From Escherichia phage LF82-10: DNA of 52,895 bases. This document shows positions 25,938 through 52,843 of this stretch, in pieces (position 1 is the stretch's first letter; each line of letters starts with the position of its first letter). The notes below the pieces were generated by a model. It was not told the DNA's origin and ran no database searches. It was given only the letters and a program-made list of their open reading frames with translations. Both the position numbers and the translations under genes were made by a program. The stretch lies in sequence record PV660453. The stretch is one strand, 5' to 3'.

Positions 25938-25965
25938 AAACGCATTATATCAGGCATTCAGGCAA

Positions 25966-27448: not shown

Positions 27449-27461
27449 AATTATTCCTCAA

Positions 27462-27476: not shown

Positions 27477-27540
27477 AAACTGGATTGTTGAGGCGTGTAT
27501 TATATCAATCAAACGAACGAACATCAAAGGCATTAACACG

Positions 27541-36758: not shown

Positions 36759-36814
36759 GTTAAAAACTCCTTGTTTGGTTGCTCAATGATAGAGCAACCA
36801 ATGATAGTGCGTTT

Positions 36815-36829
36815 TGGCAAAAAGTGCTA
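36815..36829 (-). promoter_or_regulatory. TAGCA-box (TAGCACTTTTTGCCA) upstream of 528-aa gene
   Basis: -10 TATCAT at 36786-36791 (minus). Confidence 0.5.
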
Positions 36830-36833
36830 TTGG

Positions 36834-37250
36834 TTATAAATATTTTGCTTCAAATGTTGTGCCGTCTGCGATCGAAAATCCAACCTCCTCGCGGTAAAGG
36901 TTCCACGGTGAGCCGTCCTCGTCAAAGATAAGCCCGGCAACCCCACCAAGCGCCCTGCCTGAATCCACCTGGTAGCGCTTGCCAACCTTAAAGGATTTCT
37001 TCATTGGGTTCTTGTGATCCAGCGTCATGCACTTCAGGGTTTTAGTTTTCATCTCAACGAATGTTGCAGCAACGACGCCATCCGATGAAACGAAAATATC
37101 ACCGCTTACGCCAACCGAAAGCACGATCTTAGCCTTGCCCTTGCCGATTGAAATGTTGCCTTCATCGTCAACTTTCGCCTTATACATGTGGTTAGCGTTG
37201 AAGGTTTTAGTTAATGACATGGTGCATTTGATCTTGATTGACTTTGACAT
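36834..37250 (-). CDS. hypothetical protein (IKIKCT N-terminus, MKxKC-family)
   Basis: in-frame ATG at 37250 (MSKSIKIKCT...), SD AGGA; 138 aa. Confidence 0.45.
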   Translation of the reverse strand: MSKSIKIKCTMSLTKTFNANHMYKAKVDDEGNISIGKGKAKIVLSVGVSGDIFVSSDGVVAATFVEMKTKTLKCMTLDHKNPMKKSFKVGKRYQVDSGRALGGVAGLIFDEDGSPWNLYREEVGFSIADGTTFEAKYL

Positions 37251-37307
37251 TTTTAGTTCCTCGTTGTTGGTGTGAATGAATAATAACAAAACCCGCCGAA
37301 GCGGGTT

Positions 37308-37322
37308 TAACAAAAAGTGCTA
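37308..37322 (-). promoter_or_regulatory. TAGCA-box (TAGCACTTTTTGTTA)
   Basis: TAG is stop of 37320..38012; followed by hairpin CCCGCTTCGGCGGG and -10 TATTAT 37280-37285 (minus). Confidence 0.55.
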
Positions 37323-38012
37323 TTTGTAACGGTTGTACTGGAAGACGGCGCGAGCGAATCCGCGCGGAGTTAGGGAGCGGAGTTGCTTAGTCTTCGCAGA
37401 CTTTCCGCCGAGGAACTTCCAGCCCCAAAAGAAATGCAAGCCTTCCTCTTTTGGTAATGGTGCCTTCTCTGGCTCGCGGAAACCGTTGCCATGCCAGATG
37501 CAAGTTTTTTTCGTGTAGCCGTCTCGCAGTGGCATTTTGGGGTGCCAGGAGCCTTCACGCGCATCGACGTATTGCCCGAAGTCACGAGGATGGAAATAGA
37601 ATTTAGGCTTGCCCAGGTTTTCCGGCTTTGACATTGCCCCTACCGGGTTTTCAATCATCCACGGGATCTGGTAGCGTTCGCCAATCTCAATGACAACCTT
37701 TGCACACTCAAGCGCATATTTCATTTCGGCGTCGTCTCTCTCGTGCTGCGCGCCAGATTGGGCAAACAGAGTGCAATCCGGGAAGCCAAAAACGATATCA
37801 GGCTTGGGCAACCCCAGGATCTCAGCCTTTGTGATGAAATCCTTATCAATCCACGTATTCACATATCGGATATTTGGGTGATTCATCTTCACGGCGTACT
37901 CGCCATGATTGCCGGAGTCAGCGTTGAAGCATATCACCTGACAACCAACCTCAGCCCAAGGCAATCCCATAATGCCGGAGCCGTCAAACAGCGACCATAC
38001 AACACGCTTCAT
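37320..38012 (-). CDS. short C5-cytosine methyltransferase-like SAM-dependent protein
   Basis: 230 aa; motif I-like LFDGSGIMG, motif IV-like GFPDC (Pro-Cys region), motif VI-like ENPVG; no room for a normal target-recognition domain; stop TAG embedded in box 37308-37322. Confidence 0.5.
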   Translation of the reverse strand: MKRVVWSLFDGSGIMGLPWAEVGCQVICFNADSGNHGEYAVKMNHPNIRYVNTWIDKDFITKAEILGLPKPDIVFGFPDCTLFAQSGAQHERDDAEMKYALECAKVVIEIGERYQIPWMIENPVGAMSKPENLGKPKFYFHPRDFGQYVDAREGSWHPKMPLRDGYTKKTCIWHGNGFREPEKAPLPKEEGLHFFWGWKFLGGKSAKTKQLRSLTPRGFARAVFQYNRYK

Positions 38013-38230
38013 TCTGCCACCTCTTCAAATTTAGCCACGCCCAGGATTACCCATCCTTTATGGTGCATAGTAACCGCTTGCCACTCGAATGAGCCGTTGC
38101 GGCGCTTCTCATCGCCAGTGATCACAGCATCACCGCCAACCTTCACGGCATCGTAGATTTTACCTTTCGTGAAGTGTGGCTTTTGCTTCTTATCGGTTGG
38201 CGAAACAGCGCCAGTACATTTCAGTTTCAT
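38009..38230 (-). CDS. hypothetical small protein (MKLKCT, MKxKC-family)
   Basis: 73 aa; SD AAGGA; stop overlaps next start (ATGA). Confidence 0.45.
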   Translation of the reverse strand: MKLKCTGAVSPTDKKQKPHFTKGKIYDAVKVGGDAVITGDEKRRNGSFEWQAVTMHHKGWVILGVAKFEEVAE

Positions 38231-38239
38231 TGCAGATCC

Positions 38240-38479
38240 TTAAAATGGAATTTCATCTTTGCAAGCTTGACATACTTTCTCAGGCGTGCATGAGCAGTTA
38301 TAAGCGCAAACAGAAACCGGATTATTGCCGATAACCTTGCTTTCTGATTGGTGATCCATTCCACCAAGAGCATCATCAAGCTCTATGCACCCATAGGCAA
38401 CCATCATTGCCCACTCGTCGTTAAGCCCGGCATCCTTAGCCGCGCGGTGGCGGCTCCAGAAGTTATTGACGTTCTTCAT
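38240..38479 (-). CDS. hypothetical Cys-containing small protein
   Basis: in-frame ATG (MKNVNNFW...) with SD GGGAG inside ORF-track 38240..38770; 79 aa. Confidence 0.35.
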   Translation of the reverse strand: MKNVNNFWSRHRAAKDAGLNDEWAMMVAYGCIELDDALGGMDHQSESKVIGNNPVSVCAYNCSCTPEKVCQACKDEIPF

Positions 38480-38705
38480 TCTCGCGCTCCCGATCCTGAT
38501 AGCCGATTTCAACGAGCGCGGAGCCAGCAGCCTCGACGAATTCCATGTTGCAGCACATAAAGAAAAGTTCCTTGTATTGCTGAGGAACATCAAGCGCATC
38601 GATAATCTCTCTTGCGCGATCTTCATCGATATCGTTGCGATATAGCCCGATCTGGCGCGAATGCATACGGAACGTCGCGCCAGCTTCAATCTTGTTGATA
38701 GCCAT
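38463..38705 (-). CDS. hypothetical protein
   Basis: 80 aa; ATG directly after upstream stop codons, SD GGAG. Confidence 0.4.
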   Translation of the reverse strand: MAINKIEAGATFRMHSRQIGLYRNDIDEDRAREIIDALDVPQQYKELFFMCCNMEFVEAAGSALVEIGYQDRERENEERQ

Positions 38706-38708
38706 TTA

Positions 38709-38933
38709 TTAGCTCCAGGAGTTGATAAACATTGCGTTACCTTCAAGAACCTGAATAACTTCAAACTCACTGTATTTCGTCAGGCCGGAACCTGGGGTTT
38801 TGCCAACCACAAAGGAGCCATCACGGCGAGCGGTAATGCAAATCTGAGTCAGGCCGGATGCGCGATCCAATTTCACGCGAACGGAGCCAGTTTTATCCAG
38901 GTGTGCCATGATATTTGCGGTTTTAACTTTCAT
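38709..38933 (-). CDS. hypothetical protein
   Basis: start placed at in-frame ATG (MKVKTANIM...) with SD AAGGAA; downstream of box 38992-39006. Confidence 0.4.
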   Translation of the reverse strand: MKVKTANIMAHLDKTGSVRVKLDRASGLTQICITARRDGSFVVGKTPGSGLTKYSEFEVIQVLEGNAMFINSWS

Positions 38934-38991
38934 CTTCATTTCCTTGTTTGTTGGTGTAACTGCATTATTGCAGATCACGCCGATTTAGTTT

Positions 38992-39006
38992 TAACAAAAA
39001 GTGCTA
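38992..39006 (-). promoter_or_regulatory. TAGCA-box (TAGCACTTTTTGTTA)
   Basis: TAG is stop of 39004..39351; weak -10 AATAAT at 38964-38969 (minus). Confidence 0.5.
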
Positions 39007-39351
39007 TTTGATGCCGTCAAAGGTTGTGTATTTCAGGTTCACACTGACCTTGCCATCATCGAAATGGAAAGCGGGAGCCTCAAAGCGGATGATGTTATTC
39101 ATCGTTCCGGCCTCTACGTAGCGTCGTGCGCCATTTCTCATGGGGATAACGCTGACTCTCTTTGCCGCATCGAATGGATTTGAAACGCCAAAGTATCGAC
39201 ATACAGCGCCGCGCAACGCCTCATCTTCATGCTTATGCATATCACGGATGAGGCGATTTTTAGCGTCCATCATCACATCATAGCTTGCACAGCTAGAGCC
39301 GATGTTGCTATATTCGCGCATTCCGCCAACCTTGAATTGATTGTTGTTCAT
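39004..39351 (-). CDS. hypothetical protein
   Basis: 115 aa; stop TAG embedded in box 38992-39006. Confidence 0.4.
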   Translation of the reverse strand: MNNNQFKVGGMREYSNIGSSCASYDVMMDAKNRLIRDMHKHEDEALRGAVCRYFGVSNPFDAAKRVSVIPMRNGARRYVEAGTMNNIIRFEAPAFHFDDGKVSVNLKYTTFDGIK

Positions 39352-39596
39352 GGTAACTTTACCTCGTTGTATTCACAGAATTCGATTACATATTCACAGC
39401 TATCGGTTGACTCAGTGCCGCGCAGAACATCACAGCCGCCATCACTACCCAAGAAGGCCGGGCATGAAGCGCACAGCGCGCCGCCGCAATTCGATTCGAC
39501 GATTGACATTCCGTTACACCTTCCGCCGCCGAATCGGTGCGGAAAGTCATAGGCGCGGCAGTCGCACGTAACCTGGTGTCGCTTACGCTTTTGCAT
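39348..39596 (-). CDS. cysteine-rich small protein
   Basis: 82 aa with ~10 Cys in CxC / CxxC-like spacing. Confidence 0.4.
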   Translation of the reverse strand: MQKRKRHQVTCDCRAYDFPHRFGGGRCNGMSIVESNCGGALCASCPAFLGSDGGCDVLRGTESTDSCEYVIEFCEYNEVKLP

Positions 39597-39807
39597 CTGC
39601 CAGCCACTTAGCGTATTTTGCGCGCTGATTCATTGAGCAGGTGATCCCCTCTTCCTTCATGTTGCTCGCGCGGTAGATCTCAACCTGTGATTCCGTGTTT
39701 AACTTGCCATCACGAACGTAAACGGAGCCACGGAAGGTGTGGAAAACTACATCTTTCATGGTTGCAGCCAGCGCCAGGAATTCAGACTTTTTCATCATAT
39801 GTGCCAT
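39583..39807 (-). CDS. hypothetical protein
   Basis: 74 aa; downstream of box 39867-39881 and -10 CATAAT. Confidence 0.4.
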   Translation of the reverse strand: MAHMMKKSEFLALAATMKDVVFHTFRGSVYVRDGKLNTESQVEIYRASNMKEEGITCSMNQRAKYAKWLADAKA

Positions 39808-39866
39808 TTGCTTATCTCCGTTTCGTTTTAGTGGTTACATTATGCCGGGTTTCCGCCCGGCACGTT

Positions 39867-39881
39867 TAGCAATTAGTGCTA
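39867..39881 (-). promoter_or_regulatory. TAGCA-box (TAGCACTAATTGCTA)
   Basis: abuts stop of 39882..40088; -10 CATAAT 39839-39844 (minus) after hairpin. Confidence 0.55.
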
Positions 39882-40088
39882 TCAGATTGATTCGATTACC
39901 GCGTGGAAATCTTTGCGGGTTTTGCAGTCTGCCAGGCGTGCATAACATGCTTTAGCGTAGTCAGTATCGGCCTGAGTTTCGAAGATGCCACACTCTTTGG
40001 CGATAGCTTTTAATGTACGCTTTCCGCTTTCGATATCAGCCTTGATGCCGTTGATGGTGTTGATGTCGATGATGTTAAGAGTTGTCAT
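39882..40088 (-). CDS. hypothetical protein
   Basis: 68 aa; downstream of box 40155-40169. Confidence 0.4.
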   Translation of the reverse strand: MTTLNIIDINTINGIKADIESGKRTLKAIAKECGIFETQADTDYAKACYARLADCKTRKDFHAVIESI

Positions 40089-40154
40089 TTTGCTATCCTT
40101 TTGTGTGCTTCGTTTCGATGGAGTAATAATAGCAAAAGCCAGATCGGGAGTTTT

Positions 40155-40169
40155 AGCAAAAAGTGCTAT
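40155..40169 (-). promoter_or_regulatory. TAGCA-box (TAGCACTTTTTGCTA)
   Basis: -10 TATTAT 40126-40131 (minus). Confidence 0.5.
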
Positions 40170-40230
40170 TTTCCCGATCCGGCGCGCGGAACATCTGCCC
40201 CATGGTTTGGGGTGTTAACCAGTCAGAGCG

Positions 40231-40659
40231 TCATGCGTAATAAAGCCCTGATGTTAGTTTCTCAACGTCAACCTTCGCCTTGTACGGCTTATCACACCCA
40301 AGGCACCAGGCTATATAATCAGCGCCATGATCACAAGACGAAATCCAGACGCGCCATTGCTTTGACCCGGCGTGCCAGCGATACAGAACCTTGTAATCCT
40401 CACTATGGAAGTAAACGCCATCATCATCATCGCGGATGATATGCCCACGCTCAAACAGCTTGAAGCGCTTCACGGTTTCGATGATGTAGCGCGCCTGAGG
40501 GTTAGCGCTCCCGGTTTTGTACACGCGCCCGGCTGACATTTTGCCTTCACTATCACTGATGCGAACCATCGTCATTCCACCATCGACGTGCTGACGGGTA
40601 ACAGTGGCACCACGGCTTTTGGCGAACTCCAGCGCCTTGATCAGATGTTTGTTTTTCAC
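40231..40659 (-). CDS. hypothetical protein
   Basis: 142 aa ORF. Confidence 0.4.
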   Translation of the reverse strand: MKNKHLIKALEFAKSRGATVTRQHVDGGMTMVRISDSEGKMSAGRVYKTGSANPQARYIIETVKRFKLFERGHIIRDDDDGVYFHSEDYKVLYRWHAGSKQWRVWISSCDHGADYIAWCLGCDKPYKAKVDVEKLTSGLYYA

Positions 40660-40871
40660 GCTTTATTCCTCGTTAATTTGAAAGTCAATTCAACCTCGCC
40701 CACAACCTCCGCCATCCCATGATTTACCATGTAACGAAACTCTTCATAGGTAAATGCGGTTTGCGCTGGCAGGCCATCCATGATGCGCATACAAGGCAAC
40801 TCACTGTAGCGCGTCATTGGGATCGCGTACTCGCGCCCGGTTGTCTTAATGCGGATAAGTTTCATTTTCAT
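40656..40871 (-). CDS. hypothetical protein
   Basis: 71 aa; stop overlaps downstream start. Confidence 0.4.
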   Translation of the reverse strand: MKMKLIRIKTTGREYAIPMTRYSELPCMRIMDGLPAQTAFTYEEFRYMVNHGMAEVVGEVELTFKLTRNKA

Positions 40872-41026
40872 TGCGCCTCCATCTCCTCAACTGAACCACA
40901 GTACCCTTTCTCATTGTTGATCTCATCCTCACGAGCAACCGCATCACTCTCTTTAAGCCATACGCTATCAACCTCTGAGTCTCCGCCACTAAAGAACTCG
41001 TGACGCATCACAACGTATACGATCAT
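40868..41026 (-). CDS. hypothetical small protein
   Basis: start placed at in-frame ATG (MIVYVV...) adjacent to upstream stop; acidic C-terminus; weak. Confidence 0.25.
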   Translation of the reverse strand: MIVYVVMRHEFFSGGDSEVDSVWLKESDAVAREDEINNEKGYCGSVEEMEAQ

Positions 41027-41271
41027 AACCACTCCATTGCTTTGATGATGCACTCTGCCTGTGAGCCGATAAACGAGTTGTCTTTGGTATCAGCTCTCCA
41101 CTGACGCGATCCTTTTGCCACCTGGGTGCACGTAATCATAACGCCACCACGATAACCAACCTTGAACGCGTTTGATGTCTTGCCATTACTGCGCTTACGG
41201 AAATGGTCAGTAACGATTACTCCGTTGTCAGTTGCAGCGTCGATTGCTTGCTGAATGGTTAACTTGCTCAT
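41023..41271 (-). CDS. hypothetical basic protein
   Basis: 82 aa, 3 nt after upstream stop. Confidence 0.4.
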   Translation of the reverse strand: MSKLTIQQAIDAATDNGVIVTDHFRKRSNGKTSNAFKVGYRGGVMITCTQVAKGSRQWRADTKDNSFIGSQAECIIKAMEWL

Positions 41272-41274
41272 AAA

Positions 41275-41514
41275 TTACCCCTTGATAGTCAGGCCGAAAG
41301 CCTCAACCAGAATGTCACTTGCAGCGTGCATTTCGCAACGAGCAACCTCACGGTCATCAAAATTCTCTACAGCGTACATCACAACACCACGAGCCTGATC
41401 AGCTTCTACAAACTGGTTGCAACGGTCATTCAGTTCTTTCGCTAACTCAGCGTCAAAATCAGCCGTTACGCCTTCGATAAACTCCGCCTCGGTGATGATG
41501 TTCATGTAGCGCAT
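41275..41514 (-). CDS. hypothetical acidic protein (first gene of leftward accessory operon)
   Basis: 79 aa; downstream of box 41575-41589 and -10 TATAGT. Confidence 0.4.
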   Translation of the reverse strand: MRYMNIITEAEFIEGVTADFDAELAKELNDRCNQFVEADQARGVVMYAVENFDDREVARCEMHAASDILVEAFGLTIKG

Positions 41515-41574
41515 TGCTGTTTCCTCAGTTCGTTTCGTTGAGATAACTATAGCCGAAACATCCTGAGTGGTTTT

Positions 41575-41589
41575 AGCAAAAAGTGCTAT
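41575..41589 (-). promoter_or_regulatory. TAGCA-box (TAGCACTTTTTGCTA), first of leftward accessory operon
   Basis: -10 TATAGT 41546-41551 (minus). Confidence 0.55.
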
Positions 41590-41602
41590 TGATTCGATTT
41601 AT

Positions 41603-41664
41603 CCAATTATTCCATTATTCCAACTATTCTGGAATATTCCTGAATAACCGAATATCTGGAATAG
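41603..41664. repeat. cluster of GGAATA/TATTCC motifs including perfect palindrome GGAATATTCC (41631-41640)
   Basis: ATTATTCCA x2, GGAATATTCC, CTGGAATAG in 62 bp; GGAATAATTGGAATAG recurs at 42931-42946. Confidence 0.6.
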
Positions 41665-41709
41665 TCAAAATGACTATGGCTCTCCGTTCGTTTTAGCGAA
41701 CAAACGTTC

Positions 41710-41730
41710 GATGTGATGTGATGTGATGTG
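41710..41730 (+). repeat. (GATGT)4 microsatellite
   Basis: GATGTGATGTGATGTGATGTG. Confidence 0.8.
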
Positions 41731-41899
41731 AATGAGGGTGAGGAGGCGATCAGATCTGATCCCGAAACTTTTTCCCTCACCGCACGATTTGCTAATGAAT
41801 TGTCGTGCCTGTAGTTGTATGTTGTGTTTTACGTTTTCCGTGGAAATCGGTACGCGCTACTACGCGGAATAACAATGTTATGCTTTATATATAGATATA

Positions 41900-41950
41900 T
41901 AAGTATATATAAAATAAAGGTTTTTTATTATATATATTATCTAATTTCAT
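41900..41950 (+). repeat. AT-rich element (TAAGTATATATA...GGTTTTTT...ATCTAAT), copy B
   Basis: homologous to 20839-20880. Confidence 0.6.
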
Positions 41951-42162
41951 AACACTTTATAACGTGTTGTGTTTGTTCCGCCGGACGCGGAGTGATTGAT
42001 ATGTTTCGCGGCCTATTTATGCCTATATTGTGAAATATGGGTAGGGGGATATATACCCCTCCGAAATCCGCAACAAACGCTTAATACGCACTACAACCCA
42101 GCAGGAATGCACCATGTAGAGGAGATTTTGTTGATAATGGCAATAATCGACACAAATTAATC

Positions 42163-42191
42163 TTGACTACAATTAAGCTTTTCCGCATTAT
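42163..42191 (+). promoter_or_regulatory. sigma70-like promoter TTGACT-17-CATTAT for rightward accessory operon
   Basis: hexamers at 42163-42168 and 42186-42191, 33 bp upstream of 42224. Confidence 0.55.
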
Positions 42192-42223
42192 GGCGGCTCA
42201 ACCAATCAGATGAGGTATCACCC

Positions 42224-42721
42224 ATGACACTTGCAGAAGTATTGCGCTATATGGCAACCGAAGCCATGAAATCCCCTGAGAAGGAGATCACCGTGCCAGT
42301 GTGGCAAATCCTGGTTCAGGCACACAATCTGGACGCTGACGAGCGCCGCGCATTACAGGCAGACTTTGACAAGCGCGTTGAGCTGGTAGCAAGTGAGAAG
42401 CGCCTGACCAACTCGTACATCACCAACACCTGCAACCGCATGAAGGAAATGATCGCGGCTGACCTATCCATCACCACAAAGCGTGGCGAGGACGACGGCG
42501 GGAATCGGACGCTCACCCTGGGCGTTAAGCCCGGCGCAATGAAGCTGGGCAGTCGGAGCAAGTCGGAGAACATCGCGGCGAAGAATGCAGTGCAGGATTT
42601 TGCCCGGCGCATCATGGAGATTGCCCCAGCACTAGATAGCCTGAGCGATGATCGCGTTGCTGGTGCCGTCGATGGCGTGCGCATGATGAAAGAGCTGATT
42701 GCCAGGGAGGCCGGACTATGA
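42224..42721 (+). CDS. hypothetical protein (first gene of rightward accessory operon)
   Basis: 165 aa; SD GAGGT; downstream of sigma70-like promoter TTGACT-17-CATTAT (42163-42191). Confidence 0.45.
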   Translation: MTLAEVLRYMATEAMKSPEKEITVPVWQILVQAHNLDADERRALQADFDKRVELVASEKRLTNSYITNTCNRMKEMIAADLSITTKRGEDDGGNRTLTLGVKPGAMKLGSRSKSENIAAKNAVQDFARRIMEIAPALDSLSDDRVAGAVDGVRMMKELIAREAGL

Positions 42722-42930
42722 AGCTTCGAATAGCTATCGTTTCCGTTGTGCTGCCATTCAGCGGCGAGCGCAAAAACACATACGCCGTTCAAAAGCGGAT
42801 CGGCTTCTTCTGGTGGCAGACGCTTACCCTGTGTGACAGCTTGCCCCAGGCGCGCCACTATGTACGCCACACCCTGGAAGATCGCAGTGGTGAAAAGCTG
42901 GTCAAGGTTCTGAATCGTTATTCCTCTTGA
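42718..42930 (+). CDS. hypothetical protein
   Basis: 70 aa; ATGA coupling. Confidence 0.35.
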   Translation: MKLRIAIVSVVLPFSGERKNTYAVQKRIGFFWWQTLTLCDSLPQARHYVRHTLEDRSGEKLVKVLNRYSS

Positions 42931-42945
42931 ATGGAATAATTGGAA

Positions 42946-42960
42946 TAGCACGAACTGCTA
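42946..42960 (+). promoter_or_regulatory. TAGCA-box (TAGCACGAACTGCTA)
   Basis: preceded by GGAATA repeats; -10 CATAAT 42983-42988 inside palindrome GGGGCTATGCCATAATAGCCCC. Confidence 0.55.
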
Positions 42961-43019
42961 AAACACCAGATCGGGGCTATGCCATAATAGCCCTACACCA
43001 ACAAAACGAGGTTAGCACA

Positions 43020-43235
43020 ATGGAAACTGTAACAATCGGCGCTAAGCCGCCATCATTTGACAACTTCCCGTCGCAATTCGTTGAGGATGAATACGGTGAC
43101 GAAACAGAGGTGTCTTTAATTCACTCGTCAGGCAACAAGTCTGTACTCATGGAAAGCGGCAACATGATTTTCACGCCAGATCAGGCGCGCGAACTGGCTG
43201 CGGCTCTCATCAAGGCGGCTGAGGTGTGCGAATGA
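43020..43235 (+). CDS. hypothetical acidic protein
   Basis: in-frame ATG (METVTIG...) after box 42946-42960; 71 aa, Asp/Glu-rich. Confidence 0.4.
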   Translation: METVTIGAKPPSFDNFPSQFVEDEYGDETEVSLIHSSGNKSVLMESGNMIFTPDQARELAAALIKAAEVCE

Positions 43236-43441
43236 AGTTCAAAACTACATACGTATCACCGCGCGCTCGCGTTGCATTCAACCTGCGCAAGGGTATGACA
43301 TACGACGCTGAGAAGATTGGCAATCAGATTTCGGTGCGCGTGCCTATCGGTAGGCTCATCATCAAGCTCCAGGGAGAGAGGTTCATGAGTCGCTCAATGA
43401 CGGGCGAATTACTCGCGGCATGGGAGGAAGTGAAAAAATGA
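43232..43441 (+). CDS. hypothetical protein
   Basis: ATG 43232 overlaps upstream stop (ATGA); 69 aa. Confidence 0.4.
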   Translation: MKFKTTYVSPRARVAFNLRKGMTYDAEKIGNQISVRVPIGRLIIKLQGERFMSRSMTGELLAAWEEVKK

Positions 43442-43746
43442 TGATTTTGAATGACCGAGAGGAGCTACAGGAAGCCGTGAGACTGGCGCTAAAATCAGAC
43501 GTGCCATTTATCGAAGTTGTGCTTTGCGTGGCTGCCAGCCTCGATGTACGGCCCCGTGTGGCTGCTTTCATGGTTCACTCTAACACCTTCGATATGGCTG
43601 GCACATTCCAGGGTGATAAATTCCTTGAATTCTTGATGCAGCTAACCGATAAGTTCGAAGCCATGCATCCTGACCGGATAAGCGCCAGTGGGCAGATCCT
43701 GATCGAGGAGTTCACCAACTTTGTGATTCGCGGTACATGGCGATAG
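43438..43746 (+). CDS. hypothetical protein
   Basis: ATG 43438 overlaps upstream stop; 102 aa; stop TAG embedded in box 43744-43758. Confidence 0.4.
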   Translation: MMILNDREELQEAVRLALKSDVPFIEVVLCVAASLDVRPRVAAFMVHSNTFDMAGTFQGDKFLEFLMQLTDKFEAMHPDRISASGQILIEEFTNFVIRGTWR

Positions 43747-43758
43747 CACTTTTTGTTA
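43744..43758 (+). promoter_or_regulatory. TAGCA-box (TAGCACTTTTTGTTA)
   Basis: TAG is stop of upstream gene; -10 CATACT 43781-43786 after hairpin TGCCGG/CCGGCA. Confidence 0.55.
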
Positions 43759-43816
43759 AACGTGTGCCGGGCTAATCCGGCATACTGTCACCACACCAAC
43801 CAATCAAGAAGTCAAC

Positions 43817-44095
43817 ATGAAGACGTTAAAAGAGATTTTGGCAGAAATTGACGAGGCTGCGCTCAAGGATAATGACGACGAGGCCACAACAAGCAAGAAG
43901 ATCCTGACTTGCGGAGCCACTCACATTGCGCAAGATGCAGACGGCGCAGTATTCGCATTCAGGGGTAAGCCAACCGCCACGAAAATTGAGGATATGACGG
44001 AGTGGTTTAGCGGCGAAAAAGGTGAAGTGCTGTTATTCTGCGCAGACCTGGAAAAGCCAGAAGATTGGACGCAGTGCATTTGGGAGCTGCCATAA
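43817..44095 (+). CDS. hypothetical protein
   Basis: 92 aa. Confidence 0.4.
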   Translation: MKTLKEILAEIDEAALKDNDDEATTSKKILTCGATHIAQDADGAVFAFRGKPTATKIEDMTEWFSGEKGEVLLFCADLEKPEDWTQCIWELP

Positions 44096-44415
44096 TGAAA
44101 AAGTTTGTCGGATCGTGTTTGCTGGTTTCTGTCCTGGCGCTGGCGTTCATCGCTCTCGCAGGGTGTGACGACTCAACCCGCGTGCCTCGTGAGCAGCGTA
44201 GCAAGGTGCGGGTCACAACGGCTGAATCCGGGCGCGTGCAGGTGCGCAAGATCAGCGAATTCCGTGACGACCTGGCTTATGACAGCTATCGAGGCGTGTA
44301 CATCATCACGGACACTGAAACCGGGCAGGAGTTCATAGGCGTTAGCGGTGTTGGTATCAGTGCTATCGGGCAACACAATTGCGGCAAAAACTGCTGGAAG
44401 AAAGATGAGAGATAG
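44095..44415 (+). CDS. putative lipoprotein
   Basis: ATG overlaps upstream stop (TAATG); signal peptide with lipobox LAGC. Confidence 0.5.
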   Translation: MKKFVGSCLLVSVLALAFIALAGCDDSTRVPREQRSKVRVTTAESGRVQVRKISEFRDDLAYDSYRGVYIITDTETGQEFIGVSGVGISAIGQHNCGKNCWKKDER

Positions 44416-44427
44416 CACTTTTTGTTA
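44413..44427 (+). promoter_or_regulatory. TAGCA-box (TAGCACTTTTTGTTA)
   Basis: TAG is stop of lipoprotein gene; -10 CATAAT 44450-44455. Confidence 0.55.
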
Positions 44428-44484
44428 AAACTGCCCGGAGCGATTCGGGCATAATGATTTCACACCAAACGAGAGGAAGTGAAA

Positions 44485-45099
44485 ATGTTTAAATTAGTTC
44501 GCGGCGTAACAACTCCAAATGACATTCTTATCCATGTTGCATCCGGCGCACGCTATGACGTTCCTGACAACACCAAACAGGTTGCAGTAGATCAGGATGG
44601 AGAAATATACGCCTATGAATCCGGCATGGCTAAAGTAGAGCACGGGCACACCGGATGGAGTGATAACGGATATGATGGTTTTGTCAAGTGCATCGGTAAG
44701 ATTCCGAGCGATCAGGAAAACATGCCGAAAGGTGTATTCCCTGGATGGCTGGACTCATTGACAAGCATCGACGCGCTTAAGCTTTCGCCGGAATACGCCC
44801 CGCTAGGCAGTAAGAAAAAGATTGAGATCGCAACACCCGTTCGCATTGGCGGCTCACAACTCCGCGCTCGTGTCACGGAATATCTTGACCGCAAGATGAA
44901 GGATAACGTTGTCGGATCTGTTCGGGCGCGCCACTTCCTTTCTGACATTCGAAGCGAGGGCTTCACGTTCGAGAACTACCGCACAGCCGATCTCGTCCTG
45001 GCTCTGGTTACTATCGGGTGCGATCTCAAGCTGGCTCGTGACTATGCAGCATTCCGCGCCATTGATGATGCGGTTCACTTTGTGCGAGGTGAGGCATGA
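44485..45099 (+). CDS. hypothetical protein
   Basis: 204 aa from ATG 44485, SD GAGGAAG. Confidence 0.45.
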   Translation: MFKLVRGVTTPNDILIHVASGARYDVPDNTKQVAVDQDGEIYAYESGMAKVEHGHTGWSDNGYDGFVKCIGKIPSDQENMPKGVFPGWLDSLTSIDALKLSPEYAPLGSKKKIEIATPVRIGGSQLRARVTEYLDRKMKDNVVGSVRARHFLSDIRSEGFTFENYRTADLVLALVTIGCDLKLARDYAAFRAIDDAVHFVRGEA

Positions 45100-45227
45100 A
45101 CCTAACAACTCTTGAGGCGATCATTGTCGCTACCGCTGGCTTACTCGTTGCTGGCATCATCATTGAGCAAATTGCCTATACCTGGTTGCAGATTGTTAAG
45201 CGCCGGAAGGAGAAAGGTGATGATTAA
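45096..45227 (+). CDS. small hydrophobic peptide (43 aa)
   Basis: ATGA coupling to upstream gene; one TM segment followed by KRRKEK. Confidence 0.3.
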   Translation: MNLTTLEAIIVATAGLLVAGIIIEQIAYTWLQIVKRRKEKGDD

Positions 45228-45324
45228 TGCAATCGGCGCGGCATGTCTTCTTGCTTCCGTCACTGTGGTTGCGGTTGGCGCTGTTTGGCTAATGGCAAAA
45301 ATATTGCGTGAGATTGACGAATAG
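45220..45324 (+). CDS. small hydrophobic peptide (34 aa)
   Basis: ATG overlapping upstream stop; one TM segment; stop TAG embedded in box 45322-45336; alternative is a 70-aa TTG-initiated ORF 45112..45324. Confidence 0.25.
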   Translation: MINAIGAACLLASVTVVAVGAVWLMAKILREIDE

Positions 45325-45336
45325 CACGAATTGCTA
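45322..45336 (+). promoter_or_regulatory. TAGCA-box (TAGCACGAATTGCTA)
   Basis: -10 TATCAT 45359-45364 inside inverted repeat CGGCATG/CATGCCG. Confidence 0.55.
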
Positions 45337-45396
45337 AAACGGCATGGCTCCTGAGTGGTATCATGCCGTTACACCAAACAAACAGGAGTCACCCAA

Positions 45397-45762
45397 ATGA
45401 AAGTTAAATGCATTAGTTCAGACGTTTTGCTTGATGGTTACTACACCCCAGGTAGAGTCTACCGATTAAGGCGAGAAAGGGGCAAAAGCTATAGAACCGT
45501 TAAATCAAACAGAGGCGTTGATCTTGGTGTTATCCACGACCCATTAAAAAGAGGTCGGTTTTTCGTTGCTGGATTTGAACGTTGTGTGTTTGATTCGGCT
45601 CCGCACCGATTCGTGAAGCGCAACCAAAGCGCCGCGCTGGGGCAGATTGAGATCGACTATACGCGATGCAAGCGCAGCATTCGCAATCAGGCTCGCAACA
45701 TCGCAAAAGAGCACTTCTCGTGCGGCAAGCTTGAGAAGATTGCGCGAGGCTATAAGCGATAG
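45397..45762 (+). CDS. hypothetical basic protein (MKVKCI, MKxKC-family)
   Basis: 121 aa from ATG 45397, SD CAGGAG. Confidence 0.45.
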   Translation: MKVKCISSDVLLDGYYTPGRVYRLRRERGKSYRTVKSNRGVDLGVIHDPLKRGRFFVAGFERCVFDSAPHRFVKRNQSAALGQIEIDYTRCKRSIRNQARNIAKEHFSCGKLEKIARGYKR

Positions 45763-45774
45763 CACTTTTTGCTA
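45760..45774 (+). promoter_or_regulatory. TAGCA-box (TAGCACTTTTTGCTA)
   Basis: -10 TATAGT 45797-45802 inside inverted repeat AAGGGCA/TGCCCTT. Confidence 0.55.
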
Positions 45775-45842
45775 AAACTTCCGCAAGGGCATTTGATATA
45801 GTGCCCTTATTGAAGCAGAGCAAACCAATCAGAGGATTCAAC

Positions 45843-46052
45843 ATGGCAATACCAACATTTACCCGTAAGCAGTTTACCGAGTTCTTCCGCCTGGTTAACA
45901 TGAGCGGCAGCCCGCACCAGATGGATCGCATCACTAGCCGCCTTGAAATGCCCAAGTTCGTTGAGGCAGTCGGGCGCAAGAATTGCAATAGCATGTGGGC
46001 GCTGATTAATGGCGGCGTTACACCATCAACCTTAGACCCGGAGATCAAATAA
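45843..46052 (+). CDS. hypothetical protein
   Basis: 69 aa, SD AGAGGA. Confidence 0.4.
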   Translation: MAIPTFTRKQFTEFFRLVNMSGSPHQMDRITSRLEMPKFVEAVGRKNCNSMWALINGGVTPSTLDPEIK

Positions 46053-46417
46053 TGCGCATTCGTTTATTAAACCCGTCAATCTATACCGGAATGGAGCTGA
46101 GCAAATACAACTCAGATCCTATGCACGACGAAAGCAACTACCCGGTTATTGTTGAAGCGTCAGAGAAGGATCACAACGGCTTTGAATTCACAGGCCGGGC
46201 GCATGTAAGCTACAAGGAGCTTGATCGCGTATTCCCATACGGATTCGAGCGCGACAAGTGCGAACCTGGGAAGGGCATTGGCTGGTGGAATAACCCGGTA
46301 AAACGAGACGCTAAAACGCCTCAAATCTCATGGGAGCCAGTATCACCGTTTGACTACTGGAACAAGCTGAAATCATCCCGCCCGGTTGGTGACGTGGTTC
46401 CGGCGGGGTACTTATGA
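46052..46417 (+). CDS. hypothetical protein
   Basis: 121 aa; TAATG coupling. Confidence 0.4.
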   Translation: MRIRLLNPSIYTGMELSKYNSDPMHDESNYPVIVEASEKDHNGFEFTGRAHVSYKELDRVFPYGFERDKCEPGKGIGWWNNPVKRDAKTPQISWEPVSPFDYWNKLKSSRPVGDVVPAGYL

Positions 46418-46665
46418 GAAAATTAACCCGCGATGAGGAGCGTTTTAAATCGTGCCTCAAGAAGTCAAAGCAGAAGGCTATCATCATGGATCGCAACTCA
46501 TCCGGTCAAGCCTTCTGGCATTTCCCGGACGTTGAGCAAACGGGATGGCACCCGGACACTATACGAGATCTCATGCGTGATGATCTTGTTGAGTTCGGGT
46601 TAATGGATAGTGGGCACCCTAACGGACAGCCGCGATACAGTAACGCAAAGTGGATAGGGGGTTGA
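46414..46665 (+). CDS. hypothetical protein
   Basis: 83 aa; ATGA coupling. Confidence 0.4.
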   Translation: MRKLTRDEERFKSCLKKSKQKAIIMDRNSSGQAFWHFPDVEQTGWHPDTIRDLMRDDLVEFGLMDSGHPNGQPRYSNAKWIGG

Positions 46666-46666
46666 T

Positions 46667-46855
46667 ATGCAGATCTACAAATCGCCAGGCGGAGCAAGAT
46701 ATGTCGTTGTTGATGGCGTTGTTTACTGCAAGCCAGCAGATGGAAGCATGGTTTACAGGCCGCGCATGACGGTTGAGCGATATCTTGAGCTTATCGCTGG
46801 CGGTCTTCTGACATTCCATTGCGTTATTCGCCCGGTAATGTTCAAAAAGCACTAA
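46667..46855 (+). CDS. hypothetical protein
   Basis: 62 aa. Confidence 0.35.
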   Translation: MQIYKSPGGARYVVVDGVVYCKPADGSMVYRPRMTVERYLELIAGGLLTFHCVIRPVMFKKH

Positions 46856-46861
46856 TTGCTA
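46847..46861 (+). promoter_or_regulatory. TAGCA-box variant (AAGCACTAATTGCTA)
   Basis: -10 TATAGT 46884-46889 inside inverted repeat AAGAGGCA/TGCCTCTT. Confidence 0.5.
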
Positions 46862-46927
46862 AAACTTGCTAAGAGGCATTTGTTATAGTGCCTCTTGTCG
46901 AGTTAACACAAATACAGAGGATTTGAA

Positions 46928-47632
46928 ATGAGCATTCAACGCTACTACCCTGAAGTGAAGTACACAGTGCGGGAAACTCGCGTTAATATGGCTCCACACG
47001 AGCGCGGAAGCTATGTGACCTATGAATCACACATCGAAGAATTGCGCCGCGTACAGGCCGAATTAGACGCCTTAAAAGCGATGCAAAAAAGCGATTTTTT
47101 CTATCACCTAAAGCCAGTCTTCGAAAAGGCGCTTGAAGAGGCGATTGCTATCGTCGTGAAGCAAGCCAGCCAATCAGTTTTCAAGGTTGACGCTGAGGCG
47201 CTAATTGCTGCTGACGTTGGCCGTTGGATGGAGAAGCACATGAACGAGCGCGCCGGATTTGCAACTGGCAGCCTGTTTGTGGGTGATGTAGAGGTTGATT
47301 TCGACAACAACAAAGTCAAGATCACCGATGCGCTAATCAAGAGCGGCGTTGTGACTGAAAGCGAATTATTCTCTTTCCCTAAGGCACGAAAGAACATTGT
47401 CGTTTGCACAAGCGCCGATGAAGGTAGCGGTTTCACTATTGGAAAGAAATACGCATTCGATCGCAATGAAGGGAACATTATCCGAATCTGCCAGGATGAT
47501 TTTGTTTCAGATCTCGCAGAGGATGATTGCTGGATTGCAAGCCGCCGCCGAAACCTGGTAAGCGGTGAATTCAGATACTTCTTACAGGGGCATACAGAAG
47601 GCAAGCGCGCATCTTTCGAGATCGTTGAATAG
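46928..47632 (+). CDS. hypothetical protein
   Basis: 234 aa; contains internal CT...GKKY motif of the MKxKC family; stop TAG embedded in box. Confidence 0.45.
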   Translation: MSIQRYYPEVKYTVRETRVNMAPHERGSYVTYESHIEELRRVQAELDALKAMQKSDFFYHLKPVFEKALEEAIAIVVKQASQSVFKVDAEALIAADVGRWMEKHMNERAGFATGSLFVGDVEVDFDNNKVKITDALIKSGVVTESELFSFPKARKNIVVCTSADEGSGFTIGKKYAFDRNEGNIIRICQDDFVSDLAEDDCWIASRRRNLVSGEFRYFLQGHTEGKRASFEIVE

Positions 47633-47644
47633 CACGAATTGTTA
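47630..47644 (+). promoter_or_regulatory. TAGCA-box (TAGCACGAATTGTTA)
   Basis: -10 TATCAT 47667-47672 inside inverted repeat GGCATGTG/CATGTGCC. Confidence 0.55.
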
Positions 47645-47702
47645 AACGGGCATGTGTTCCGACTGGTATCATGTGCCAACACAAACAAGCAAGGGGCTTT
47701 AA

Positions 47703-47870
47703 ATGTTCGAAGAAAAGAAACACAGGCCGGAACAAGCTTACTCAAGGGTATCACGCACCGTTAAAGAGCGTAGGCGCTGGGTTAAGTATTTCATGAATCA
47801 AGGCCACACCAGATCGGTTGCGATTGGCCTGGCTAAGTGGGCAACAAACAACTACAACGGGAAAAACTGA
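47703..47870 (+). CDS. hypothetical basic small protein
   Basis: 55 aa; stop overlaps next start; below ORF-track cut-off. Confidence 0.3.
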   Translation: MFEEKKHRPEQAYSRVSRTVKERRRWVKYFMNQGHTRSVAIGLAKWATNNYNGKN

Positions 47871-48502
47871 TGAACTTTCAAATGTACACTATGATCAAGC
47901 ATCACTTACTTACTCATCCAGATCAGCCAGTCTACATCTTCGACTATGACGGCACGCTTTCGGATGGCTCTCACCGACTGGACAAGTTGCCAACAAAAGA
48001 TTTGCACCTCACCGAAAGCTGGGAAGAGTTCAATCGCCTTGCTTCATTCGATGAGCCGATCGAAACAACCATTCAGGTGATGAATTCACTTTATAAGGCT
48101 GGCGCTTTCGTTATCGTGTTAACCGGGCGCGCCGATAGCGTTGTTGAAGAGTCAACACAATGGCTGCATGATGCTGGGGCGAAATATACAGTGATGGTGA
48201 TGCGTGGGCGTGACGACAATCGCAAGGACACGATCATCAAGGAGGAATTCTTGCGCTACATCGGACTTGAGCGAATTACAGCGGCGTGGGATGATAGCCC
48301 AAAAGTGATCGAGCATTTCCGATCGCTGGGCATCACAACCTACCAGGTTTGTGATTATGGCGATAAGACTCACGCGCATCTACAGTCACACGGCGTGAAA
48401 GATGCTGGCGGAGAGTGTGAGCATATTTGGGAGCGTCACAGTATTGGTGACGATTATTATGAATGCTGTGTTTCATGCGGCAGATCAAGAGGCATTAAGT
48501 AA
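47870..48502 (+). CDS. HAD-family phosphatase (T4 Pnk 3'-phosphatase-domain-like)
   Basis: 210 aa; HAD motif I FDYDGTL; later segments (VLTGRAD, RGRDDNRKDTIIKEEF, AWDDSPKVIEHFRSLGITTYQV) resemble the T4 polynucleotide kinase phosphatase domain from memory. Confidence 0.6.
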   Translation: MNFQMYTMIKHHLLTHPDQPVYIFDYDGTLSDGSHRLDKLPTKDLHLTESWEEFNRLASFDEPIETTIQVMNSLYKAGAFVIVLTGRADSVVEESTQWLHDAGAKYTVMVMRGRDDNRKDTIIKEEFLRYIGLERITAAWDDSPKVIEHFRSLGITTYQVCDYGDKTHAHLQSHGVKDAGGECEHIWERHSIGDDYYECCVSCGRSRGIK

Positions 48503-49110
48503 TGGCAACTATCATCATTCTGAATGCGCCGCCGCGCGCCGGGAAAGACACGATCGCGAAAATCATCGACGAGCAATACGGCTTGCCAGTTGTGAGCTTC
48601 AAAACTCCGATGTTCAACATTGCTCGCGGCATCTTGGGCGAAGCGGATTTTAAAGAGTTCATGGCGGTTTACGAAACAGACCGCAAGGACACACAGCCGT
48701 TAAGTATTCTGCATGGCAGCACTTGCCGCGAGTTTATGATCTGGATTAGCGAATCCGTGATTAAGCCTCATTTCGGCAAGAAGCATTTCGGCTGGCTTAT
48801 GGCTGATTTGCTCAGCGAAATGGAGGATGATGTTGATCTCACAATTTGCAGCGATGGCGGGTTCCCGGATGAGGTAGAGGCGTTGATTGACTTCGGGCAC
48901 CGTGTCAAGCTGGTTCGTATGCACCGTGAAGGCTTCGACTTCTCGAAAGATAGCCGTGACTACATCTACCTTTCCGAAGAGTACAAGAGCAAGCCTGGTG
49001 TTGTTGAGTTCGATCTGACATTGCAGGACGGTTGCCCTAATCTGGCTGCTGAGACTATCGCGTCATTGTTCATTGCCCATCATAAACCAGATAACGAGAT
49101 CCCTTGGTAA
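48502..49110 (+). CDS. P-loop kinase (T4 gp1 dNMP-kinase-like)
   Basis: 202 aa; Walker A LNAPPRAGKDT and later ICSDGGFPDEVEA resemble T4 dNMP kinase; start overlaps phosphatase stop (TAATG). Confidence 0.55.
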   Translation: MATIIILNAPPRAGKDTIAKIIDEQYGLPVVSFKTPMFNIARGILGEADFKEFMAVYETDRKDTQPLSILHGSTCREFMIWISESVIKPHFGKKHFGWLMADLLSEMEDDVDLTICSDGGFPDEVEALIDFGHRVKLVRMHREGFDFSKDSRDYIYLSEEYKSKPGVVEFDLTLQDGCPNLAAETIASLFIAHHKPDNEIPW

Positions 49111-49111
49111 A

Positions 49112-49126
49112 TAGCACTTTTTGTTA
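49112..49126 (+). promoter_or_regulatory. TAGCA-box (TAGCACTTTTTGTTA) fused to terminator-like hairpin
   Basis: 41 bp identical (inverted) to 37282-37322; hairpin CCCGCTTCGGCGGG 49129-49142 then TTTTGTTATTC. Confidence 0.5.
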
Positions 49127-49183
49127 AACCCGCTTCGGCGGGTTTTGTTATTCTTGCTTTAACGAAACGAAATGGAGTGAAGA

Positions 49184-49414
49184 ATGAAAACTTTATCAGA
49201 GCTGAAGTCGATCGCGGCTGACTTGCAGGAGCGAATGAAGCCACTAAACCACAAGCTGGAAAACTCGCGCATTACTATAGCCTCAAGAATGTCTATCGAG
49301 TGCTCACTGCGCGAACTTAAAATCATGTGGCATGATGCCATGTGCGACGTTCACGCTCACCCTGAGTACGAAGGTGAGTTTAAATTCCAGAAAGAAAACA
49401 ACCCATACCGATAA
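49184..49414 (+). CDS. hypothetical protein
   Basis: 76 aa. Confidence 0.4.
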   Translation: MKTLSELKSIAADLQERMKPLNHKLENSRITIASRMSIECSLRELKIMWHDAMCDVHAHPEYEGEFKFQKENNPYR

Positions 49415-49424
49415 GGATTCAATA

Positions 49425-49721
49425 ATGAACACTATCAAAAAGTTGACTCCAAACATGGCAACCAAAATCAAGTACGAGATCCCGGAGGATGGCACATTCT
49501 TAGCCGTCTGGACTTATCGCGAGATCCCGTACTCCGGTACTTATCAATGGCGAAACGGCGAGCTTGCCGTGTGGGTTGATGGCGTTGGCTGGGAAATTGC
49601 CGGGCATGGAGCGGCGGAGGACTATTACGATTTCAACTGCCTCGTGTCTATGGCTAGTGGTGAGAATTACGGCGGTGCTTGTCACTTTGTTGCGGTTGTA
49701 GTGGTTGAGGAAACAGCGTGA
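49425..49721 (+). CDS. hypothetical protein
   Basis: 98 aa from in-frame ATG (MNTIKK...). Confidence 0.4.
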   Translation: MNTIKKLTPNMATKIKYEIPEDGTFLAVWTYREIPYSGTYQWRNGELAVWVDGVGWEIAGHGAAEDYYDFNCLVSMASGENYGGACHFVAVVVVEETA

Positions 49722-49891
49722 AGACTTTTATTATTTTCCTAGTTGGCGCTTGCATGGTTAGCGTTTCTGATAACTTCACAGTTTTCGTTGGCGCTGCGAT
49801 GGTGTCGTGGGCTTACTACCGATGCGGAAAGGCTGACGGAATAGCGGAAGGTAAACGCCAGGCGCTGGCATCCGGCACTAAGTTAAAGTAG
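49718..49891 (+). CDS. small membrane protein (GTG start)
   Basis: 57 aa, two hydrophobic segments; GTGA overlap with upstream stop; TAG embedded in box 49889-49903. Confidence 0.25.
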   Translation: MKTFIIFLVGACMVSVSDNFTVFVGAAMVSWAYYRCGKADGIAEGKRQALASGTKLK

Positions 49892-49903
49892 CACGATTTG
49901 TTA
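49889..49903 (+). promoter_or_regulatory. TAGCA-box (TAGCACGATTTGTTA)
   Basis: -10 TGGTATAAT 49923-49931 inside inverted repeat GGGGAT/ATCCCC. Confidence 0.55.
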
Positions 49904-49961
49904 AAAGGGGATTCGTCCTGACTGGTATAATCCCCACATCAACCAAGCAGAGGAAACGATC

Positions 49962-50414
49962 ATGAAATTAGTTTGCACATCATCACGCGTCAAAAGCTTC
50001 ACCGTTGGAAAGAAATATGAAAGCCGCACAGTCGAGCATTACGGAATTGTTACGCACGAGGTGGACGGAGACACCGCTTGCGGCTGGGTGATTAACGATG
50101 GCCTGAGCATTTGCGGAGCTGATCACTCAAACCCAATGGCAACTTTCCGCAAGGATAAGAGCATGATGAAGATGCTTGTTCGCGCATTCGTATTGGTTGC
50201 AAAGGCTCGCGGTTGGGGTGATAGCAAGAGCGGGGCTTACAAATCCTGGAGCGGCACACCTTACAAAAACTCCAGAGATTGGGCGCGAGCTATTGCCTTC
50301 AGCTACGATGTTGGGAGTGTTGCGCGCGAGATAATTGATGAAGATCCTAACGTGAAACTCATCGACCAGGAAGCGGTAAACCTGTTTGCCGAAAACGAGA
50401 TCGACAACTGGTAA
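49962..50414 (+). CDS. hypothetical protein (MKLVCT, MKxKC-family)
   Basis: 150 aa; SD GAGGAA. Confidence 0.45.
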   Translation: MKLVCTSSRVKSFTVGKKYESRTVEHYGIVTHEVDGDTACGWVINDGLSICGADHSNPMATFRKDKSMMKMLVRAFVLVAKARGWGDSKSGAYKSWSGTPYKNSRDWARAIAFSYDVGSVAREIIDEDPNVKLIDQEAVNLFAENEIDNW

Positions 50415-50476
50415 TTTGCGCAAGGCCGTTTATAATAGCGGCCTTACTCAGACAAACCAATCAGAAGGAAATCACC

Positions 50477-52819: not shown

Positions 52820-52843
52820 CAACCCGCTTCGGCGGGTTTTTTT
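52820..52843 (+). terminator. intrinsic terminator at end of rightward accessory operon
   Basis: AACCCGCTTCGGCGGG then TTTTTTT. Confidence 0.6.

Follow-up and report, generated by a model that had tools for sequence, protein, structure and literature searches.

The 52,895-nucleotide sequence of Escherichia phage LF82-10 (record PV660453; this whole stretch of DNA is called the window hereafter) carries two copies of a 44-bp element, A and B, in inverted orientation on either side of a segment of small genes. Copy A (AAATAGCAC...GTTATT; 37282-37325, minus strand) lies between the gene for a C5 DNA methyltransferase (37320-38012, minus strand), which is the last gene of a leftward operon, and the next leftward gene, a conserved one encoding 138 amino acids (36834-37250, minus strand) that is followed by a helicase gene (35172-36758). 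Copy B (49109-49152, plus strand) lies between the gene for a deoxynucleoside monophosphate (dNMP) kinase (48502-49110, plus strand; stop codon TAA at 49108-49110), the last gene of a rightward operon, and an open reading frame (ORF) of 76 codons at 49184-49414 (plus strand). The two arms closed by A and B diverge from a non-coding region of 709 bp (41515-42223). On the evidence set out below, A and B are likely to be orthologously conserved, compact punctuation cassettes, each combining a terminator with a promoter, and to belong to a repeat family of T1-like phages.

The LF82 phages are virulent T1-like siphoviruses. T1-like phages are frequent laboratory contaminants as well as candidates for therapy and, to our knowledge, their transcription programme is essentially unmapped so far. 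The 14.5-kb stretch around both copies (36000-50500) is 100% identical to that of Escherichia phages LF82-11, -12, -19, and -40, and the nearest classified relatives belong to the Drexlerviridae genus Vilniusvirus (NBD2, HazelMika, and KLB19), with approximately 75 to 78% nucleotide identity where aligned.

An earlier note on this DNA had described a perfect inverted repeat of 41 bp, composed of a box plus a terminator hairpin. An exact-repeat search confirmed that the 41-mer TAGCACTTTTTGTTAAACCCGCTTCGGCGGGTTTTGTTATT occurs without any difference at 37282-37322 (minus strand) and 49112-49152 (plus strand), with no match in 100 shuffled sequences, and that the identity in fact extends over three more bases (AAA) on the box side. 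The resulting 44-mer is the longest exact repeat of the window, in which a single 44-mer and not one 45-mer is repeated. A third instance of the hairpin core, which the note had placed at 52822-52837, lies with its flanks (AACCCGCTTCGGCGGGTTTT) at 52821-52840 (plus strand) and has no box. The repeat pair was rightly singled out for its exactness and length, but its 17-nt box is shared with many other sites. The A/B inverted repeat is real yet ordinary for T1-like phages and adds two new members to a known type of repeat-plus-terminator composite.

Each copy starts with the box, located at 37306-37322 (minus strand) in A, where it reads TAGCACTTTTTGTTAAA and agrees with the consensus published for phage TLS, and at 49112-49128 (plus strand) in B. 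In their longer form both boxes read AAATAGCACTTTTTGTTAAAC, and the 17-nt core has no mismatch at either site. The TAG of the A box is at the same time the stop codon of the methyltransferase ORF. The box is followed by a hairpin, at 37289-37308 (minus strand) in A (AAACCCGC-UUCG-GCGGGUUU, followed by UGUUAUUAUU) and at 49126-49145 (plus strand) in B (followed by UGUUAUUCUU). The third hairpin (52821-52838, plus strand) lies at the end of the rightward arm, before the gene for the small terminase subunit, with a TGGTATAAT element some 23 nt downstream of it and ahead of that gene; its position is kept in NBD2 (L004 9946-9963). All three hairpins share a CCCGC-UUCG-GCGGG core in an 8-bp stem with five G-C pairs and a UUCG loop, and among the terminator-like sites from 36 to 52.9 kb these three copies rank highest. 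A and B thus have the structure of intrinsic terminators, a G+C-rich stem-loop with the U-run tails UGUUAUUAUU and UGUUAUUCUU directly after it, and the "terminator" of the earlier description holds for the top-ranked candidate of this region. At the DNA level the same U-run (UGUUAUU after the hairpin) supplies the TG and the -10 element of a predicted promoter. This extended -10 reads TGtTATTAT in A (37280-37288, minus strand), with the predicted start at the A at 37273 (minus strand) preceded by a C, and TGtTATTCT in B (49146-49154, plus strand), with the predicted start at the A at 49161 (plus strand). The 44-mer corresponds to promoter positions from about -52 to -9, such that the identity between the copies ends inside the -10 hexamer.

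The box itself belongs to a large family. A search of the window with the 17-nt core TAGCACNNNTTGYTAAA, allowing up to two mismatches, gave 25 matches where 0.8 was expected. Of the matches, 23 clearly belong to a single family with the 21-nt consensus aaATAGCACnnnTTGyTAAAa, at promoter positions of about -51 to -31. Apart from two reverse copies (6027-6043 and 25923-25939), the boxes point the same way as the gene that they precede, with 72 to 84 nt from box to start codon; at both A and B the distance to the ATG is 73 nt. The minus-strand boxes fall within 36.8 to 41.6 kb and the plus-strand boxes within 42.9 to 50.9 kb, a division that follows the two small-gene operons diverging from the non-coding region at 41515-42223. 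Relatives carry 17 to 23 copies per genome (NBD2, TLS, Ec_L1, and T1), and T1 has approximately 20 copies of the same box, -10, and start design. Within the family of the window the A/B pair is an outlier, with spacers identical at 20 of 20 positions; the next best pair reaches 16 of 20, and the mode is 5 to 7.

The consensus of the window is the same as that of the 21-nt intergenic direct repeats DR1 to DR18 of TLS, aaATAGCACnnnTTGnTAAAA (German, Kropinski, Misra et al. 2024, PMC11447400). In that phage 18 intergenic copies lie approximately 76 nt upstream of start codons, and the 21-nt repeat has also been reported for T1, Rtp, and Rogue1 (PMC11447400). In consensus, intergenic position, orientation, and distance to the start codon (approximately 73 to 76 nt), the A and B boxes are like the TLS repeats, and they conform to the repeats of Drexlerviridae at large in that they match the consensus, are intergenic, are oriented with transcription, and reside in a genome with multiple copies. 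The composite of repeat and terminator is likewise already on record. Table S1 of the TLS study places terminator T62, cccgctacggcggg plus a T-run, whose hairpin differs little from those of A and B, directly after DR12 (PMC11447400), and the GenBank record of Citrobacter phage Stevie annotates a repeat_region and a terminator as a pair. The two arrangements differ in that TLS has a single composite at a different locus, whereas this phage and Vilniusvirus have two in opposite orientation at the ends of two divergent arms, which in this phage are identical over 44 bp. The TLS authors weighed stoperators, enhancer-binding sites, and UP elements and listed the function of the repeat among the open questions (PMC11447400); their published work makes no link between the repeat and a -10 element. 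No discussion of the repeat is found in the SU57, AHP24, and KLB papers, and an Rfam scan of the whole window returned a tRNA as its sole match.

Such a link emerges when the copies are stacked. A sequence logo was built from 58 copies of the window, NBD2, and TLS, without gaps and in the register of the box, counting from the T of TAGCAC (position 1). Positions -1 to 18 are taken up by the box; the 16 positions after it carry almost no information (about 0.1 bit), and conservation then returns with T35, G36 (90%), any base, T38, A39 (88%), T40, A41, A42, and T43 (83%), and then C49 and A50 (90%). Across three genera the register therefore reads box, 20 nt, a TGnTATAAT extended -10 element, 6 nt, and a CA start, which puts the 17-nt box at about -49 to -33 of the predicted promoter, with its centre at -42 and the start 7 nt downstream of the -10 element. 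A and B conform to this pattern, with CA at the start in A and TA in B, and the suggestion that they form a promoter-terminator cassette is borne out by the fixed distance from the box to the extended -10 element. Sigma70 promoters with a -35 element are not enriched between 36 and 52.9 kb (17 found versus 19.8 expected). In a majority of the copies (17 of 23) the stretch from box to start contains a strong hairpin specific to that copy (mean of -11.5 kcal/mol versus -6.7 for random 41-mers); a U-run after the hairpin is found among the box copies in A and B only. Taken together, these features make an in silico case that the box is the upstream element of predicted promoters that have an extended -10 element and no -35 element. 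The fixed register over 58 copies turns the published question on the function of the 21-nt repeat into a testable prediction. The promoter reading is only a mildly new point, A and B themselves being a known element.

In architecture the box promoters are reminiscent of extended -10 sigma70 promoters with a class II activator (CRP, FNR, or lambda cI, bound at about -41.5), with which they share the lack of a usable -35 element and a good, often TG-extended -10 element. Like these and the T4 middle promoters, they have a conserved upstream box at a fixed distance, here centred at about -42. In T4 middle promoters the MotA box (at about -30) takes the place of the -35 element before a good -10 element; the sequence and position of the present box differ from it, as they do from CRP and FNR sites, so that the likeness is one of architecture only, with no more than candidates for the activator. 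Many of the box promoters are embedded inside operons. The box contains 5-bp dyad half-sites, TAGCA/TGCTA, which lie 10 bp apart around an asymmetric site centre. It overlaps the position of an UP element (an A/T-rich tract of low sequence specificity at -40 to -60), but the invariance of G3, C4, G12, and other core positions (2 bits), together with variants in which the central triplet is GAA, argues against a plain UP element. Two other assignments were considered and rejected. TTGYTA within the box lies 22 nt from the -10 element and does not qualify as a -35 element. A sigma54 promoter (TGGCAC-N5-TTGC, with GG and GC elements 10 bp apart) does not fit either, as the TAGCAC-N3-TTGC of the box is 2 bp short, has AG for GG, and is followed by a -10 element.

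Alternatively, the box might act on elongating polymerase or on RNA, as a stoperator-like roadblock, a signal for RNase processing beside a hairpin, or a nut-like antitermination site made up of box and hairpin, in which case A and B would be terminators preceded by such a signal. Stoperators are among the possibilities named by the TLS authors (PMC11447400), and the reverse boxes overlie the promoters for major head and tail fibre, with a further box in the leader of a regulator gene, all places where a bound protein would block. However, the TGnTATAAT element and the CA start at a fixed, ungapped distance across an unconserved spacer are promoter features at the level of DNA, there is no match to an Rfam family, and the phage is virulent, with no repressor or integrase genes reported in the announcement paper of the LF82 phages. 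We regard a role of the box outside promoters as quite unlikely and favor the terminator-promoter reading of A and B.

The comparison with relatives bears on the age of the pair. At site A the identity extends over 44 nt in KLB19 and over 43 nt in HazelMika and amounts to 42 of 42 positions in Ec_L1 and 43 of 44 in NBD2, and the flanks diverge. HazelMika, KLB19, and NBD2 also have site B. Its stem reads cccGc/gCggg in LF82 and HazelMika and cccTc/gCggg, with one mismatch, in KLB19; in NBD2 the change to cccTc/gAggg restores the pair, a compensatory change that concerns a single base pair in few genomes. HazelMika has a different box triplet and a TCCG loop at site B. A pattern scan of IMG/VR for hairpin variants (TTGYTAAACCCNNTTCGNNGGGTTTTG) returned two contigs only and no larger set of covarying stems.

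These data speak to whether the identity of A and B stems from a recent duplication or from gene conversion between cassettes in the LF82 lineage. That A and B are the sole pair with fully identical spacers would fit such an event, as would the one to five positions at which B differs from A in HazelMika, KLB19, and NBD2, compared with none in LF82. Moreover, the composite occurs at non-orthologous sites of Ec_L1 and TLS, from which it follows that some copying between box sites does happen in the family. On the other hand, every Vilniusvirus-like relative already has the composite at both sites, in orthologous positions and in surrounding DNA that is only approximately 75 to 78% identical, and the identity between A and B ends exactly at the limits of the functional elements. 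In addition, each character state of B in LF82 is found in another B orthologue, the TTTTTGT of the box in NBD2 and KLB19, the CCCGC arm in HazelMika, and the TTCG loop in NBD2 and KLB19. By parsimony, the ancestral B was then probably already the same as A, without any recent event. Conservation at both orthologous sites and the compensatory change in the stem indicate that the pair is old and maintained by selection and is not the recent duplication that had been proposed; we consider a recent duplication or conversion unlikely. Instead, the two copies would be identical because they descend from one cassette variant in which nearly every position is functional.

Repeats of this kind could also serve as recombination substrates, through which the 11.8-kb segment between them would invert or rearrange in the population as a switch or a source of variants, and the earlier note had raised inversion or deletion of the segment. 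Single-strand-annealing systems of phages use stretches of identity in a range that includes 44 bp of perfect match, and among the products of this phage are exonuclease VIII, an Erf-like annealing protein, and a single-stranded DNA-binding protein (SSB). With two divergent operons inside, a flip would restore intact junctions, with all genes co-oriented with the flanks. Yet four LF82 genomes, HazelMika, KLB19, and NBD2 agree in the order and orientation of the genes around A and B, and regulatory sequence kept at each site separately accounts in full for the repeat. A synthetic inversion junction, consisting of the end of the dNMP kinase gene, the 44-mer, and the gene downstream of A, was covered to at least 80% in one place in none of 50,697 phage records; in this search, performed at blastn sensitivity, the two halves always mapped apart. 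No serine invertase or other site-specific recombinase appears among the annotations of the LF82-11 record, a statement that concerns the annotations, as no separate domain scan of all ORFs was made. The invertible G segment of Mu and C segment of P1 (Gin/Cin) and the Hin segment of Salmonella have in common with A and B short inverted repeats around a segment of several kilobases. They differ in that they come with an invertase, whereas the A/B segment has none annotated and consists of 11.8 kb of early-type small genes in place of tail-fibre or flagellin alternatives. Unlike the Gin/Cin/Hin sites, the A/B repeats belong to a regulatory family of 23 copies, and no relative has the segment in the opposite orientation. 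We therefore hold it to be very improbable that the segment inverts or rearranges; rare inversion isomers beyond the reach of consensus assemblies are conceivable but unsupported. The 44-bp inverted repeat is best viewed as regulatory punctuation that is found family-wide, and it does not point to an accessory region that is invertible or unstable.

Past exchange between the A and B junctions was considered and set aside. NBD2_16, encoded downstream of B, is only a weak partial paralogue of the protein encoded downstream of A (30% over 74 amino acids). The context ATTCCCTGGTAAATAGCAC, which is common to the upstream sides of B and of a T1 box, comes from an ...IPW* peptide at the end of unrelated proteins and not from rearrangement.

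How, then, might the cassettes function? Transcripts running outward from 41.5 to 42.2 kb through the small-gene arms would stop at A on the left and at B on the right, and transcription would restart approximately 10 nt later from the box-dependent promoter. On the left, the restarted module would comprise the gene for the 138-amino-acid protein and the helicase gene; on the right, the genes from 49.2 to 52.8 kb, starting with the 76-codon ORF. After the start, a short leader and a ribosome-binding site would lead to the start codon at 73 nt from the box. A sequence-specific protein may bind the box and act, centred at about -42, in the manner of a class II activator; candidates are a 152-amino-acid helix-turn-helix (HTH) regulator and host RNA polymerase alone. 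A and B might mark a temporal boundary between gene classes. Their inverted orientation follows from the divergence of the two operons. A terminator followed by a promoter is a known form of punctuation between small groups of genes; A and B resemble it but differ in that terminator and promoter physically overlap, with the hairpin in the promoter spacer and the U-run serving as TG and -10 element.

The region from which the arms diverge contains GGAATA/TATTCC repeats, (GATGT)4, a GATCAGATCTGATC palindrome, a long TATATA-rich block, two hairpins, and, at 42163-42191, a TTGACT-17-CATTAT promoter. The region probably serves as an origin of replication, an early control region, or both. The first gene slot after B (49153-49425; L002 15947 and L004 6401-6625) varies between relatives; it holds the 76-codon ORF in LF82, no extra gene in HazelMika and KLB19, and in NBD2 an ORF of 74 codons (NBD2_16) whose product is weakly similar to the N-terminal half of the protein encoded downstream of A.

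Several points weigh against reading A and B as conserved terminator-promoter punctuation. The composite also occurs at loci that are not orthologous. In Enterobacter phage Ec_L1 the box-plus-CCCGCTTCGGCGGG composite is present twice, at 8708 and 11410 (both minus strand), as a direct repeat 2.7 kb apart, the copy at 8708 being a direct repeat of A, and TLS has a variant at 39625 (plus strand). Among the genomes compared, the composite is thus placed at different intergenic sites in different lineages, and gene conversion could have contributed to the identity of A and B. B has a weak -10 element (TATTCT). In the leftward arm the first promoter (41572-41588) is one of the box promoters, so that a stop of immediate-early read-through at A is less secure on this side. 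For the protein that reads the box there are candidates only; the invariant G/C positions speak against a plain UP element, yet the early genes must be served by a promoter on which unmodified host polymerase can act. Finally, literature searches for T1-like phages gave no mapped 5' or 3' transcript ends, so that termination and initiation at A and B are predictions.

As to the protein that may read the box, the first candidate is the 152-amino-acid HTH protein annotated as a transcriptional regulator (phrog_2856; 26990-27448, minus strand), which is a core gene product in 828 phage records and whose connection to the box is conjectural. A search of PDB sequences with this protein gave no match. 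Its own promoter (27527-27499, minus strand; TTGATG-17-TATAAT with TG) and the plus-strand box promoter of the helicase gene have their -10 region in common, and the transcript of the regulator gene runs across a box at 27462-27478 ahead of the start codon, a layout also present in TLS (P57 and DR11). The locus from 26990 to 27545 looks like an autoregulatory arrangement. The second candidate is a protein of 378 amino acids (31894-33030, plus strand) that is annotated as a DNA repair exonuclease/phosphoesterase and has an N-terminal HTH resembling region 4 of sigma70. Its Sigma70_r4_2-like match scores 16.4 bits here, below the Pfam cut-off; that of the KP36 orthologue (L012 40948-42078) scores 26.6 bits, above the cut-off of 25.7 bits.

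The two reverse boxes may give a further indication of what a protein that reads the box does. The copy at 6027-6043 (minus strand) lies inside the spacer and -10 element of a TTGACC-16-TATTAT promoter with TG (6020-6047, plus strand) before the major head gene, a position that is kept in NBD2, TLS, Ec_L1, and T1. The copy at 25923-25939 (plus strand) lies just downstream of a minus-strand extended -10 element, TGATATAAT (25952-25944), before the tail-fibre gene. Binding of a protein to the reverse boxes would block the promoters at which they lie, which fits a protein that also represses. A broader model may then be put forward tentatively, and we would give it somewhat less than even chances. 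The 21-nt repeat would be the recognition element, centred at -42, of approximately 20 extended -10 promoters per genome that lack a -35 element, and would be read by a conserved phage protein, either the 152-amino-acid HTH protein or the one with the sigma region 4-like domain. This protein would activate at these promoters and repress at the reverse boxes of the major head and tail-fibre genes and in its own leader, and A and B, with their built-in terminator in the spacer, would limit the first transcription units.

Some further features of the window were noted in passing. Compared with LF82-11, the window is 84 bp shorter; at least 75 bp of the difference fall within the tail-fibre gene (23533-25908) and the rest just after it, and nothing points to a part played by box repeats. 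The C-terminus of the dNMP kinase reads ...DNEIPW and that of its NBD2 orthologue ...SDDIPW, and an unrelated acidic T1 protein of 69 amino acids (L011 47118-47327) ends in ...DDYIPW. The phage SSB (23013-23498) ends in ...FDDDIPF, the canonical C-terminal tail of SSB, which the end of the dNMP kinase resembles, and such tail-like ends may target other phage proteins to the partners of SSB. The 3' part of the SSB gene, encoding a Gln/Pro-rich part of the protein, contains a 12-nt tandem repeat, ACCACAGCAGCG, at 23417-23463.

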